DNA of 64,000 nucleotides from the NCBI GenBank assembly GCA_029856105.1, contig JAHQWH010000193.1, forward strand, positions 32,001 through 96,000, read 5' to 3'. Of this stretch, positions 21,079 to 59,973 are shown piece by piece. Every line of letters begins with the position of its first letter. The first letter of the stretch is position 1. The translations under genes and the position numbers were made by a program. This DNA comes from Promethearchaeia archaeon. Its GTDB lineage: Archaea > Asgardarchaeota > Lokiarchaeia > Sigyniarchaeales > SOKP01. The notes below the pieces were generated by a model, which saw nothing but the letters and a program-made list of their open reading frames with translations, was not told where the DNA came from and made no database searches.

Positions 21079-21831
21079 ATGTCTGAAGAATTAATTGGGA
21101 AAATAAAAGTTGTTAATGAATACTTTAAAGATTTCAATAATTTTCTTGAACTCAAAGATTTTCGAGCTTTCCTATTATTGACGTTAACAAGTCAAGCCGT
21201 AACGAATATTATGGCTCAACTTGGTATAGGGGGTGATAAAGATGTTATTAATCTACCTTATAACCCTAACTATAAATTCTATTATCAAAAAATCAATTTA
21301 ATGTCTTCAAGCTCGATAATATTATACGTAAAGTCTGAACCAATAACAAACGAGCTTATTTTGGAAAAAAATAACGAAGTTTTTAAAAAATATTTAAGTT
21401 CAAATGAGATAGCTCTCGCATTTAGAGGCAAAGAAAAGTTTTTATTTCCGAAAGTTAGCGATTGCAGCACATTGGAAGCTTCAGACATTACTGTGAAGGT
21501 TGACGATTTATTTCACACTTTAGATTCTTTCATTTCTTATGCTCAACCAAATATCCTGTTTGTCTTTGATGCTGAAACATCTTCGAAACCAGATTTAGTA
21601 TTTACATTTAACATGATGCCACAATTGCCAAAAAAATTAAATGAAAATGTGTTAAAAGTTGATACCTTTTTGGATTACGAAAGAAAGACAAAAGATATTA
21701 CTTACATTAAGCGGGAGGAAGATTATAGTCTAACTTATTTAGAAGATATCAAAGAAATCAGCCACGCGGAATTATACAAGTCATCCTTTTCCTTAGTGAT
21801 ACATTTAAAATCTATAAATAAACCTACTTGA
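21079..21831 (+). CDS. Hypothetical protein
   Basis: 250-aa ORF; no recognisable motif. Confidence 0.65.
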   Translation: MSEELIGKIKVVNEYFKDFNNFLELKDFRAFLLLTLTSQAVTNIMAQLGIGGDKDVINLPYNPNYKFYYQKINLMSSSSIILYVKSEPITNELILEKNNEVFKKYLSSNEIALAFRGKEKFLFPKVSDCSTLEASDITVKVDDLFHTLDSFISYAQPNILFVFDAETSSKPDLVFTFNMMPQLPKKLNENVLKVDTFLDYERKTKDITYIKREEDYSLTYLEDIKEISHAELYKSSFSLVIHLKSINKPT

Positions 21832-55087: not shown

Positions 55088-56008
55088 ATGCAATTTATTG
55101 AACGATTAATTCAGTCTATTAAGGATAAGAAAAGCGTAGTTTGTATGGGACTTGATCCCAGGATGGATAAGCAAGGCGAAATTCCAAAGTATTTAATAGA
55201 TGAGTTAAAAGATCCAAATAAAATAATTCTAGAATTTAACAAAAATCTTATTGATCATACATCTGATTTAATCCCCGTTGTAAAACCGCAGATCGCTTTT
55301 TACGAGAAATATGAGGCGTTAGCAGCGTTGAAAGAAACGATAAAATACGCCCATAAAAAAGATTTACTTGTCATTTTAGATTCAAAGCGTAACGATATTG
55401 GTTCAACTTCGGAAGCGTACGCGTATTCCACGTTTAAAGTTTACAATGCTGACGCTTGTACAATAAACGCATACCTTGGATTTGATGGGATTAAACCTTA
55501 TTTAAGTTATAAAGAGAAAGGTCTATTTATCCTAGTAAAAACTTCAAACCCTAGTAGTAAAGATTTTCAAGATATCTTTAGCGCTAGGATCCTTAATGTT
55601 CCCGACTCTGATGTTGAAGTTATAGTAGATCAAATAACACTGGAAAGAAATTATATCCACATGGCAAAACTAGTTTCTGAGTGGGGAAAGAACCTTGAAC
55701 AATTTTCTAATTTTCATAATTTGGGAGTAGTAGTAGGAGCAACTTACCCACAAGAATTAAAAGCAATAAGGAAAACAGTCAAAAATTCCTACGTGTTAAT
55801 ACCCGGATATGGGGCTCAAGGTGCTCAAACGAAAGAAATTAAACATGGTTTTAACGATAAAGGATTGGGGGGAATTGTAAATTCGTCAAGAGGGATAATA
55901 TATTCGTATAATAAAAAAGAATTATTCTCGCCTGATAAGTATGGTGAAGCTGCGAGAGACGAAATAATTGACATGAACAAAAAAATTAACAAAGAAGTTA
56001 ATTTGTGA
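55088..56008 (+). CDS. pyrF: Orotidine-5'-phosphate decarboxylase (subfamily 2)
   Basis: GLDP, KPQIAFYE, DSKRNDIGST, KTSNP, VVGAT, PGYGAQG, NSSRGI. Confidence 0.95.
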   Translation: MQFIERLIQSIKDKKSVVCMGLDPRMDKQGEIPKYLIDELKDPNKIILEFNKNLIDHTSDLIPVVKPQIAFYEKYEALAALKETIKYAHKKDLLVILDSKRNDIGSTSEAYAYSTFKVYNADACTINAYLGFDGIKPYLSYKEKGLFILVKTSNPSSKDFQDIFSARILNVPDSDVEVIVDQITLERNYIHMAKLVSEWGKNLEQFSNFHNLGVVVGATYPQELKAIRKTVKNSYVLIPGYGAQGAQTKEIKHGFNDKGLGGIVNSSRGIIYSYNKKELFSPDKYGEAARDEIIDMNKKINKEVNL

Positions 56009-56024
56009 AAACAAATTAGTTCAA

Positions 56025-56516
56025 TCACATTATATTTGAGAGAATGGATCCCATATTAACCATAATAAAAACGATTGGAAGGATTATTATCGAAACTACG
56101 GTTAACGAACGTTTAAGGCCAACTTGATGTATGACATTAATTACGTTTAAGTCAATAAAAGTACAAAATATTATTATTGGGATGATTACTTCGGGGGCTC
56201 CCTTGAACTCCCCTGCGAATCCTAACAAAAATAAAGGAGAACTAATAAAAAAAATTACTCCAAATTGAATTAGAAAACTTACCGCCACCCATTTCATTCC
56301 TGTTCTTTTTTTAGCTTTAGTTATTGCTAACCCGAACTTTAATAATAAGATATCTCCACCCGCAAAAGCAGCCATAAGGATTAGAAGCATAATATCCCCT
56401 TCTGGAGGATCTCCCATTTGTAATAAATTTAATAACATCTCTATTTCACTAACCGTAGAAGTTCTATTTAAATTTGATTTAATCAAACTTTTTTTATTCA
56501 ATTGCTTAAAAAACAC
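56025..56516 (-). CDS. Hypothetical membrane protein
   Basis: Four TMs; true start probably the internal ATG (MLLNLLQ). Confidence 0.6.
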   Translation of the reverse strand: MFFKQLNKKSLIKSNLNRTSTVSEIEMLLNLLQMGDPPEGDIMLLILMAAFAGGDILLLKFGLAITKAKKRTGMKWVAVSFLIQFGVIFFISSPLFLLGFAGEFKGAPEVIIPIIIFCTFIDLNVINVIHQVGLKRSLTVVSIIILPIVFIMVNMGSILSNIM

Positions 56517-56652
56517 ATAAAAGATTTTTGATTTAAAGTTAATTTTTTTAATCAGTTATTTTAAATTAGAATAAAATATTTAGATTCATAATAACAATAA
56601 TTACAAATTATTGGAGGAAACTAACAAAAAGGAACAAAAGGAATGATATGCA

Positions 56653-58617
56653 ATGGTAGAAACTAAAATTACAAATGATGAACCAAGAATCTTCGTGGCA
56701 GTATGCCAATGAGGTATTAATATTGCCGAAATAATCGATACAAAAGCTCTATCAGAATATTCAAAAACGCTTCCAAATGTAGTTGAAGCTTTAGATTACA
56801 TTTCAATGTGCACACAAGGCGGAGCCGAATTCATTAAAGAAAAAATGATCGAGAGCAACGCTAATAGGTTAGTTATGGCATCTTGCACCCCAATAACTCA
56901 CGAACCTGTTTTTAAAAGCGTACTAGAATCTATGGGTTTGGACCCTTCTTACTTGGAATTCGTGAACATACGAGAACACTCGAGTTTTGTCCATAGACAA
57001 GATAAAATAGGGGCACAAAGAACCGCTGAGGATCTTATTCGGTCTGGTGTTGCTAGGGCTAGTGTTTTAGAAAAAATTCTAATCAAAGAGGTAGATATCA
57101 CTAAAAAGGCCTTAATTATTGGTGGTGGCGTGGCAGGACTAACAGCAGGAATAGATTTGGCCGAAGAAGGTTTTGAAGTCCATTTGGTTGAGAAAAATCC
57201 GACAACTGGAGGAAAAATGGCTATGTTAGATCGAACATTTCCCACTGACGATTGTAGTATATGAATTCTTGGCCCTGTTATGCTCGAAGCGGCAAGAACT
57301 CCAGGGTTAATTGTATATACTTATAGTGACGTGGAAGATGTTTCTGGATTTGTTGGAAACTTTAATGTTAAAATCCGCAAAAGGGCAAGGTACGTTAATA
57401 ACGACTGCAATGGTTGCGGTGCTTGCTTTGATGTGTGTCCCGCTTACGGATACGATGAATTTAACGAAGGAATGAACCCGAGAAAAGCAATTTACGTTTC
57501 CTTTGCTCAAGCAGTACCCTCGATGGCTCAAATTGATATGACGAGATGCATTAAATGTGAATTGTGTAAAGGTGTCTGTGAAGTTAAAGCAATTGATTTT
57601 GATCAAGAAGATGAAATTGTAGACGTTAAAGTTGGCTCAATAATAGTAGCTACAGGATGGGACGAGTACGAACCAGAAACGGGTTATTTAGGATACGATG
57701 TTTATCCAAATGTAATAACCCAAATGAAGTTAGAAAGGATTCTTGCACCTAACGGACCAACTCTTGGGCATCTAGTTCGCCCTTCTGACGGAAAAAAACC
57801 TGAAAAAATACTATTTATTCAATGTGTAGGGTCGAGAGATTTAAACATGAATACTTATTGCAGTGGCGGAGTATGTTGTATGGTTTCAATTAAAAATTCT
57901 AAACTTATAAAACAACATTATCCTGAAATAGAAATCTCTGTTGCCTACATGGATATTCGAGCCGCTGGAAAAGATTACGAAGAGTATTACACCGCATCTC
58001 GAAAAGAAGGTATTAGATATATTAGAACTAATGTCTCAAAAATTCAAGAAGACCTTGAAACTCAAAATCTTAAAATAATTATCCAAAACACACTTAGCAG
58101 TACAAGATTAAAAGAACTTGAGTACGATATGGTGGTTCTATCGTGCGCTATGGTACCCGCAAAGGGAGTAGAAAAAATTGGAAGAATCTTAAAGCTTGAA
58201 ACGAGCCAAGATGGATTTTTCAAGGAATTCCATTCTCGATTAAATCCAATTGACACCAAAATTCCGGGTATCGTACTTGCAGGAGCTTCTCAAAGCCCCA
58301 AATCTGTAGCTGAATCAATAGCTCAAGGAAGGGCAGCAGCATCTTCTTTAGCACGATTGATGTGGAAGGATAAGTATAGGATTTTATTAATTCGAGCTAC
58401 TGTAGACAAAGATAGATGTGCGAAGTGTGGGCTGTGTGAATTAAATTGTCCTTACGATGCAATTAAGACTTTAGCTGATGGAGCAGAAGTAAACGAGATA
58501 TTGTGCCGTGGATGCGGTTCGTGCTTAGCCAATTGTCCTTCTGAGGCGATTACGCTAAGATACTACCGTGAACCTCAATATGAAAAACAAATCGATGCTA
58601 TTTTAGAAGAGATATAG
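56653..58617 (+). CDS. hdrA: Heterodisulfide reductase subunit A, selenoprotein (Sec20, Sec204), 654 aa
   Basis: One frame through TGA 56710-12 (VAVCQ-U-GINI; canonical CHCGxNI) and TGA 57262-64 (FPTDDCSI-U-IL; canonical CSxCIL). GGGVAG FAD motif, ferredoxin motifs, CVGSR. Joins track ORFs 56806 and 57280. Confidence 0.93.
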
Positions 58618-58630
58618 AGAGGTGTAAAAA

Positions 58631-59116
58631 GTGGCGACAATAGATAAAGACCAAATAAAGATCTTAGCATTTATGTGCTGGAAATGAGGTTATGGTGCTG
58701 GAGATATGGCGGGTACGATACGCGCTCAATACCCTTCTACGATTAGACCTATAAGAATCAACTGTACTGGACGCGTAACGCCTTCACTTATGATGCGCGC
58801 GATTGGAAAGGGTGCCGATGGAGTAATTGTTGCTGGATGATACGAAGGAGAATGCGATTATGAAACCGGTAATTTGGTAGCAGCAAAAAACGTGAAGTAT
58901 ACGAGAGAAATTTTAAAAACCACGGGTGTTTCCCCTGATAGAATCCAAATGTTCCATTGTAGCGCAGCTGAAGGTCAACGATTTCAAGAAGAAGTCACCA
59001 GAATCTCAGAAATAATCGAAAATTTAGGCAGCAATCCAATTAAAGAATCTCTGCGTTCCGAAAAGAACAAAAAAGATTCAAAAAAAGAACAAAAAAAAAT
59101 TAAACCGAAGGAATGA
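58631..59116 (+). CDS. vhuD: MvhD/VhuD hydrogenase Fe-S subunit, selenoprotein (Sec19, Sec70), 161 aa
   Basis: GTG start after GAGGTG SD. FMCWK-U-GY (TGA 58685-87; canonical CNWCSY), CTGRV, GADGVIVAG-U-YEGEC (TGA 58838-40; canonical AGCHxGDC), SAAEG. Confidence 0.93.
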
Positions 59117-59170
59117 CTCTTGCGAGAAAATATTAGTCGCAAGACGACGAACCATTAGCTATGGTTTCGG
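59105..59170 (+). promoter_or_regulatory. SECIS element, eukaryote-like (AUGA...GA core)
   Basis: ATGAC-TCTTGCGA-(GAAAATATTAG)-TCGCAAGA-CGAC: AUGA/GA core, perfect 8-bp stem, apical A-run; basal CCGAA/TTCGG; directly after the UGA-containing genes. Confidence 0.85.
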
Positions 59171-59352
59171 AAATTATTATTTCTATAATAATTTTTATTA
59201 TTTATTCTAAATTAACGTAATTTGAAGTTTAAAACTATTAAACTTCTACTTAGTAAGATAAAGTATAAAAACTCATCTTTCTAGATAAACTATAATTTCA
59301 ATTTTGTTTGAAATTAAAAAAATAAATGTTAAAAACAAATAAGTGAAAAAAT

Positions 59353-59973
59353 ATGGGAGAAACTTCTAAAGTAGGAATCTCAGCATCTAAAGTTGTAGCT
59401 CTTATTGGTGCGTTAGTCGTTATTCAAGTATGTATAGGATATTTTGCAACATTAGATGCATTGAATATATTATATGGCATAATAGGACTAATATTTGCGG
59501 CTGTAATCTTCATATCATTAGAAATCGTGGATTTAAAGAAAGTGAAAATACCTTATTTATGGTGGGTATTGTTAATCATCGGGATTCTCTTAATATTATT
59601 TGAATTTGCTGTTGGACCCTCATATCTTGGAGGTATTTTAGTTTTAATAGCAGCATTACTAGAATTTTTAAGTCAGAAGAAAACTTATGCGGAATCCAAA
59701 ATTGTTGCTTTAATTGGAGCATGTTATCTAATATATGAATCCGTAATGCCACTTCTTTCTGTTTCACCTGCACCTACAAGTATAGCCCTTTCTATTGTTG
59801 GATTCGTTTTTGCAATAATATTAATTTTAACATTGCAAGATAAAATAGATGTAAAAATACCTTATGCATGGTGGACAATTCTCATAATTGGCTTTGTAGT
59901 ATTTACATGGGTGACGACAGTTAGCGGAACGGTCATAATGGTAGCCTTTATCCTTATCCTGATGGCTTTTTAA
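59353..59973 (+). CDS. Membrane protein with internal duplication
   Basis: Two halves, SKVVALIGA...KIPYLWW and SKIVALIGA...KIPYAWW. Confidence 0.75.
   Translation: MGETSKVGISASKVVALIGALVVIQVCIGYFATLDALNILYGIIGLIFAAVIFISLEIVDLKKVKIPYLWWVLLIIGILLILFEFAVGPSYLGGILVLIAALLEFLSQKKTYAESKIVALIGACYLIYESVMPLLSVSPAPTSIALSIVGFVFAIILILTLQDKIDVKIPYAWWTILIIGFVVFTWVTTVSGTVIMVAFILILMAF

Follow-up and report, generated by a model that had tools for sequence, protein, structure and literature searches.

A single 3' lokiSECIS element probably serves four selenocysteine codons in an hdrA-vhuD gene pair of a lokiarchaeial genome

Introduction

Tandem hdrA-vhuD gene pairs that share one selenocysteine insertion sequence (SECIS) element, the lokiSECIS, were described in Lokiarchaeota by Mariotti et al. 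(2016, Mol Biol Evol, PMC4989117), together with five possible selenocysteine (Sec) positions in HdrA. For Asgard archaea, Huang, Xiao and Zhang (2024, ISME J, PMC11227280) likewise reported that hdrA and frhD (i.e. vhuD) are always neighbours, are separated by short gaps and share one type I eSECIS-like structure with an AUGA_GA core and an A-rich apical loop. In its published form the arrangement involves up to six UGAs over ~2 kb (PMC4989117, PMC11227280). Here we analyse one such pair, found in a 64-kb stretch of contig JAHQWH010000193.1 (positions 32001-96000, hereafter the window) that belongs to a metagenome-assembled genome (MAG) of 3.66 Mb and 32% G+C. The closest relatives of this genome are MAGs of Promethearchaeota (Lokiarchaeia), of which the closest are 94-96% identical in VhuD.

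We conclude, with a probability that we put at roughly 0.85, that four in-frame UGAs in hdrA and vhuD are read as Sec under a single 3' lokiSECIS carried on one bicistronic mRNA. The shared-SECIS arrangement is already known (PMC4989117, PMC11227280) and this locus is an ordinary member of it; relative to the main text of both papers, the sole addition made here is the three-armed shape of the element.

Four UGAs at cysteine positions in two adjacent genes

The two genes, the gap between them and the predicted Sec codons are as follows.

56653..58617, + strand: hdrA, ATG start, 654 codons, stop TAG (UAG) at 58615-58617
56710..56712, + strand: predicted Sec codon U20 (C-Q-U) of hdrA, opposite Cys13 of 5odc_A
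57262..57264, + strand: predicted Sec codon U204 (C-S-I-U) of hdrA, the canonical HdrA Sec site, opposite Cys197 of 5odc_A
58618..58630, + strand: hdrA-vhuD gap of 13 nt, with an AGGTG ribosome-binding box at 58620-58624
58631..59116, + strand: vhuD (MvhD/FlpD family), GTG start, 161 codons, stop UGA
58685..58687, + strand: predicted Sec codon U19 (C-W-K-U) of vhuD, opposite X of 9sfi_K and Cys of 9sw2_D
58838..58840, + strand: predicted Sec codon U70 (A-G-U) of vhuD, opposite X of 9sfi_K and Cys of 9sw2_D

In-frame TGAs occur in hdrA only at codons 20 (56710-56712) and 204 (57262-57264), and the vhuD frame contains three, at codons 19 (58685-58687), 70 (58838-58840) and 162 (59114-59116), the last of which is the probable vhuD stop codon. 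The AGGTG box is Shine-Dalgarno-like and lies 6 nt before the vhuD GTG start.

Both products are readily assigned. HdrA residues 9-651 align with residues 2-650 of the solved M. thermolithotrophicus HdrA (5odc_A, E 3e-197), the best NCBIfam models are HdrA2 and HdrA (HdrA2 at 762 bits), and Pfam identifies FAD/NAD and 4Fe-4S domains. VhuD is matched by the Pfam FlpD domain PF02662 (E 2.4e-42), in which its predicted Sec pair lies ~50 residues apart, by the NCBIfam VhuD model NF045873 (150.7 bits) and by PDB entry 9sfi_K (E 5e-35), of which we take both 'X' residues to be Sec. Since HdrA (model positions 1-643) and VhuD (644-774) jointly cover the fused HdrA2 model NF040770 from end to end, they form one functional unit, which corresponds to a single fused protein divided over two genes.

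When one genome per species was scanned with VhuD, 74 Promethearchaeota loci were obtained. As far as their contigs extend, hdrA is always the gene directly preceding vhuD; roughly half of the relatives have a 13-nt gap, and in the others the two genes lie 1-19 nt apart or overlap. TGA is confined to five columns across 65 HdrA sequences, namely residues 20 (60/63, with Cys in the other 3), 53 (12), 78 (4), 204 (65/65) and 599 (1); the conservation at residues 20 and 204 is far beyond chance. VhuD U19 is TGA in all relatives examined, U70 is also TGA in relatives, and the hdrA genes themselves end in TAG (33) or TAA (33) and never in TGA (0). One locus with a complete vhuD and a lokiSECIS, L077 (JAWODV010000081.1), comes from a 4.2-kb contig that had been assigned to a Kosmotogaceae bacterium; almost certainly it is an Asgard contig placed in the wrong bin.

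An initial annotation of this DNA had reported in-frame TGAs at 56710, 57262, 58685 and 58838, the 13-nt gap and the TAG end of hdrA, and every one of these coordinates was confirmed; its placement of the UGAs at conserved Cys positions also agrees with the solved HdrA and MvhD/VhuD structures, in which all four stand opposite Cys or Sec. The fragmentation that it expected from automated annotation does occur, as under translation table 11 the two genes break into pieces of 152, 445, 44 and 80 amino acids. Its view of the N-terminal CQU as an additional HdrA site has to be given up: residue 20 is one of the five published positions and, being TGA in so many relatives, marks the N-terminal CxU site as the norm.

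A three-armed lokiSECIS at the end of vhuD

The element assigned to these codons overlaps the last four codons of vhuD, and is composed of the following parts.

59104..59171, + strand: whole three-armed lokiSECIS (covariance model R1, 81.9 bits, E 1.9e-18)
59105..59109, + strand: 5' strand of helix I, CCGAA, in the last vhuD codons, pairing with UUCGG at 59166-59170
59113..59116, + strand: SECIS core AUGA, of which the UGA (59114-59116) is the probable vhuD stop
59117..59145, + strand: helix II and apical loop, with a C.C position next to the core followed by 8 bp
59146..59147, + strand: 3' GA of the kink-turn-like core (G48, A49 and C50 are invariant in alignment A1)
59151..59165, + strand: helix III, a small third hairpin ACCAU/AUGGU with a 5-nt loop (59151-59155 pairs with 59161-59165)

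As defined by Mariotti et al. (PMC4989117), a lokiSECIS has AUGA 5' of the stem, a stem of 9 positions, an 11-nt loop in which the first five bases are A-rich and the last base is G, usually with A before it, and GA (rarely AA) 3' of the stem. Every published feature of sequence and structure is present in the element at 59104-59171: the 9 positions of helix II are formed by 59117-59125 and 59137-59145, and the 11-nt apical loop GAAAAUAUUAG at 59126-59136 has the A-rich start and the AG end of that definition. The initial annotation, in describing a SECIS-like hairpin downstream of vhuD, about 2.4 kb from the first UGA, as the only one that it could find, was correct on each point, the AUGA at 59113 lying 2403 nt from that UGA and the element being the sole match in the window.

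The element is retained across the related loci. With loops of 10-14 nt allowed, the SECIS pattern was found at the vhuD end in 70 of the 74 loci, three of the other four being truncated there, and elsewhere in ~400 kb of these loci only six weak chance matches were obtained; model R1, run over 82 loci, gave one strong match per locus and none in hdrA. The vhuD stop of the relatives is always 0-15 nt before AUGA or inside it. In some relatives the core UGA is in frame, and the frame then runs on for 2-39 codons; as this extension is non-conserved, the core UGA appears to act as a stop.

In half of the rows of MAFFT alignment A1 the 5' strand of helix I was displaced, and each sequence was therefore re-cut from helix I to helix I to give alignment A2 (70 sequences). 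Within the core, AUGA varies only at its first base, which is A in 69/70 and G in locus L094. Helix I, CCGA (59105-59108) with UCGG (59167-59170), is nearly invariant over 68 distinct sequences, and the two departures are compensatory (GCGA/UCGC in L087 and UCGA/UCGA in L100). Over the same 68 sequences, changes on both sides are seen in 8 of the 9 pairs of helix II, and its position beside the core is unpaired in 32, as expected for a non-Watson-Crick quartet. Helix III is paired in 88% of cells, and its pair 54-63 covaries (AU 42, UA 10, UG 8, CG 3). As judged from these pairing patterns, the lokiSECIS is a three-way junction on a kink-turn-like core, comprising the closing helix I, the SECIS arm and the third hairpin. 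The minimum-free-energy fold offers a competitor to helix I, an extended hairpin CGAACCAU/AUGGUUUCG, which we rejected since the two bases that follow GAC are free to vary among relatives and since CCGA/UCGG is invariant or compensated.

Elsewhere on the contig the strict SECIS pattern has no second match. The rest of the genome has it behind three further vhuD genes, PrxL, VhuU and some small UGA-containing open reading frames (ORFs), and all four vhuD genes of the genome sit behind a Sec-containing hdrA that ends in UAA or UAG. Helix I of these other elements differs in sequence and keeps its complementarity (CUCCC/GGGAG, AUCCC/GGGAU, UUGGCUU/AAGCCAA, UACCCU/AGGGUA), and most of them also have helix III, usually with a loop of the GCAA or GCGA type.

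The elements behind small ORFs lie on contigs C48 (29570-29633, -), C190 (1618-1683, -) and C122 (1332-1396, +). These ORFs carry the motifs GGG-U-x-C or GNGV-U-C-C, at least that of C48 has an N-terminal hydrophobic stretch, and they probably encode a small membrane selenoprotein; helix II of the C48 element is nearly identical to that in the window. Two further matches to the SECIS model, both on contig C19 (120102-120168, -, 39.2 bits; 21297-21363, -, 27.8 bits), stand behind ORFs of no assigned family, the former with an in-frame UGA close upstream.

Search for further recoding signals

A signal proper to hdrA was sought by covariance model, by pattern scans and by local folding, and none was found in hdrA, its leader or the gap, in line with the initial annotation, which had seen no separate SECIS inside hdrA. 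With filters off, model R1 returned nothing above 11 bits in the whole window outside 59104-59171. Shuffled sequences fold as well as the gap, the leader and the 70 nt behind each UGA do (z from +0.58 to -0.76), the values for the leader at 56517..56652 (-0.69) and the gap at 58618..58630 (-0.34) being non-significant. No euryarchaeal SECIS of the GAA_A type is present on either strand of the window, and an Rfam search of 56000-59800 at E up to 10 returned only noise, with no Rfam family matching the lokiSECIS.

Selenocysteine machinery and genetic code

The Sec machinery, for which the initial annotation had proposed a search, was recovered from the genome. SepSecS is present (478.6 bits), as are PSTK, whose best family match is selen_PSTK, and EFSec, which scores 230.8 bits with the selB model vs 142 for EF-Tu; both PSTK and EFSec fall below the NCBI equivalog cut-offs, with the Sec-specific model still the best match for each. 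There are also two tandem selD genes with one in-frame TGA apiece.

The tRNA-Sec gene (contig C16, 26706-26858, - strand) adjoins SepSecS and lies ~5 kb from EFSec. Its anticodon is UCA, its acceptor stem has 9 bp and its discriminator base is G. A 31-nt T-loop insertion of the kind published for Lokiarchaeum (PMC4989117) is joined by a second apparent insertion of ~32-35 nt in the D-arm region, giving a precursor of 153 nt; once the two insertions are cut out in silico, ARAGORN reports tRNA-SeC. Genome-wide searches with the Rfam tRNA-Sec model and with ARAGORN, with or without intron mode, missed this gene, and only a search at the level of the locus found it. The number of tRNAs that ARAGORN lists in the genome rises from only 7 to 20 when intron mode is switched on; the majority of the MAG's tRNA genes appear to be intron-bearing, and the set appears incomplete.

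UGA ends 11.6% of the genome's ORFs of at least 250 amino acids, i.e. it is an ordinary stop and the code is not reassigned. Only two genes of the L7Ae family are present, and a search of the genome for an SBP2-like extra L7Ae paralogue found none beyond these two.

Flanking features

Two further features bound the gene pair, and both are inferred from sequence context.

56517..56652, + strand: presumed hdrA promoter and leader, an AT-rich divergent intergenic region
59172..59215, + strand: AT hairpin (from the fold) and T-runs (read directly), the presumed transcript end

Upstream of hdrA, the minus strand carries an ORF at 56025-56516. Around the pair lie housekeeping genes unrelated to it (HisRS, OMP-decarboxylase-like, M24 peptidase), and no hdrBC or mvhAG was found within 10 kb of hdrA-vhuD. 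The leader contains an AUGA at 56643-56646, of which the TGA is in frame three codons ahead of the hdrA start and which is kept in 39/55 relatives; it has neither a stem behind it nor a match to the SECIS model, and is probably just part of a conserved leader.

Proposed mechanism and evaluation of alternatives

In the mechanism that we favour, hdrA and vhuD would be transcribed as one mRNA carrying the single 3' SECIS at 59104-59171, and this element, probably bound by a factor for which L7Ae would be the natural candidate, would deliver EFSec and Sec-tRNA(Sec) to ribosomes paused at any upstream UGA. The core lies 2403, 1851, 428 and 275 nt away from the four UGAs, which would thereby be read as selenocysteine in both cistrons, and the fifth in-frame UGA, inside the core itself, would be too close for recoding and would terminate vhuD. 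On this mechanism hdrA has to stop with UAG or UAA, since ribosomes would read through a UGA in that place. A single transcript is supported indirectly by the 13-nt gap with its ribosome-binding box, the invariant gene order and the lack of any UGA stop on hdrA. A 3'-UTR SECIS has been shown experimentally in M. maripaludis to work at 520-679 nt, with no strict distance limit (PMC9622424).

This shared-SECIS reading is well supported by comparison. The data show how the genes are built, that the UGAs align with Cys/Sec, that the genome has the Sec machinery, that the element is unique in the window and conserved among relatives, and that no other candidate signal is present. From these we infer co-transcription, actual Sec insertion, a binding factor and, as both papers do, action of the SECIS across the hdrA-vhuD cistron boundary. 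Several considerations count against it. For any Lokiarchaeial locus co-transcription and recoding are deductions, as is, to our knowledge in every organism, the action of a SECIS past a stop codon and the re-initiation that follows it. The loci compared are phylogenetically related, and counts such as 0/66 UGA stops therefore overstate the independent evidence. The SECIS sequences were, moreover, first chosen by a pattern that demands pairing, so that the share of paired positions in helix II is in part a circular measure; neither the diversity of pair types nor the finding of one hit per locus is affected in this way.

It is conceivable that the element at the end of vhuD serves vhuD only, and that the UGAs of hdrA use a signal of their own, be it a local stem-loop of bacterial type, a lokiSECIS concealed within the coding region, or a euryarchaeal GAA_A SECIS situated in the gap or the leader. 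The hdrA of Methanococcales is said to carry its own SECIS, and one archaeal gene has a SECIS in its 5'-UTR (both PMC4989117). We nevertheless regard such a signal as improbable here, given that R1 with filters off reaches no more than 11 bits outside the element and finds no match in ~65 related hdrA genes, that the window lacks a GAA_A element, that the UGA-flanking, gap and leader folds resemble shuffles and that Rfam is empty. Action in trans, whereby the SECIS RNA would recruit the machinery from a transcript separate from the hdrA mRNA, seems to us equally improbable. An internal promoter at the 3' end of hdrA is possible, but the gap is very short, or the genes overlap, in all relatives and their order is invariant; the avoidance of UGA as the hdrA stop fits recoding in cis of any upstream UGA on the same mRNA, and HdrA and VhuD represent the split form of a single fused HdrA2 protein.

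We consider it very unlikely that the hairpin at 59117-59145 is only a terminator or stabiliser of the transcript without a role in recoding. Its location at the 3' end of the unit, with T-runs behind, would suit such a function, yet the helix covaries whereas the AUGA, the GA and both ends of the loop (an A-rich start and a final AG) are conserved, and the same element stands behind non-homologous UGA-containing genes and behind nothing else in the genome. Least likely of all is that the UGAs are not Sec codons, either through decay of both genes to pseudogenes or through genome-wide reassignment of UGA (e.g. to Trp or Cys). Standard gene callers would indeed split both genes, but the frames are otherwise intact, the UGAs fall only at Cys/Sec columns where they are kept in up to 65/65 relatives, and the genome combines a full Sec machinery with the ordinary use of UGA to end long ORFs.

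Comparison with known systems and implications

Set beside the pairs of Mariotti et al. (PMC4989117), the locus shows the same gene order, very short gap and single lokiSECIS after vhuD with none elsewhere, the same multi-Sec HdrA drawing on the same five positions, two Sec in VhuD and an hdrA that always ends in UAA or UAG, and the same overlap of the SECIS with the end of the coding sequence, with AUGA, 9-position stem, 11-nt loop and GA. Nothing essential differs: the MAG is another one, the AUGA that doubles as a stop here belongs to vhuD where the paper describes this for VhuU.1, and the closing helix and third hairpin go unmentioned in the paper's main text. The model of Huang et al. (PMC11227280) consists of core, upper stem and apical loop, and the three-way junction falls outside it. 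A junction with a closing helix and third hairpin is mentioned in the main text of neither paper, and a literature search for three-way-junction SECIS elements in archaea returned nothing relevant.

The lokiSECIS resembles the eukaryotic type I SECIS (SBP2, eEFSec) in being a 3' element that would act at kilobase distances, in its AUGA...GA tandem G.A core, in the unpaired adenines of its apical loop and in the minimum-distance rule for UGA. It differs in its shorter helix II, its presumed bicistronic mRNA, the lack of an evident SBP2 in the genome and a third hairpin that interrupts the 3' strand between core and helix I. With euryarchaeal SECIS elements (Methanococcus, Methanopyrus) it shares the 3'-UTR location and the selenoprotein families, and AUGA is likewise found in the VhuD SECIS of those organisms (PMC4989117), whereas their GAA_A bulge and GC-only upper stem are absent from it. 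The k-junction (Wang et al. 2014, NAR, PMC4005666) is a kink-turn-based three-way junction, one arm of which opens with tandem G.A pairs; the likeness is one of topology only, the internal loop of the lokiSECIS having 5-6 nt before the GA vs the 3-nt bulge of a standard k-turn.

We make one tentative suggestion, which we hold to be well short of an even bet: that a three-armed, k-junction-like RNA, in which helix III often has a GCAA or GCGA loop, is kept in ~70 hdrA-vhuD loci and behind unrelated selenoprotein genes, and may dock a SECIS-binding factor that permits recoding 2.4 kb upstream across a cistron boundary. As the vhuD stop is always located within helix I, the internal loop or the core, each terminating ribosome would unfold the element and so reset it. 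Helices I and III sharpen the structural model, defining the RNA to clone and the mutations to make in tests of Asgard SECIS function.

For annotation, the locus needs correcting, since standard callers split both hdrA and vhuD, and the comparative numbers (one SECIS in 70/74 loci, 0/66 UGA stops on hdrA, N-terminal Sec in 60/63) should be of value. With regard to the protein, Cys197 of the solved HdrA coordinates, according to PMC9012536, the N-terminal Fe-S cluster of the partner HdrA, and HdrA Sec positions 20, 53, 78 and 204 may accordingly all lie at one cluster site; if true, this would revise the 2016 statement that the HdrA Sec positions are not cluster ligands (PMC4989117). As far as is known, no other system has one SECIS that is held to act for several UGAs in two cistrons over more than 2 kb; the locus is a clean and complete instance of this arrangement, which links archaeal and eukaryotic selenocysteine decoding.

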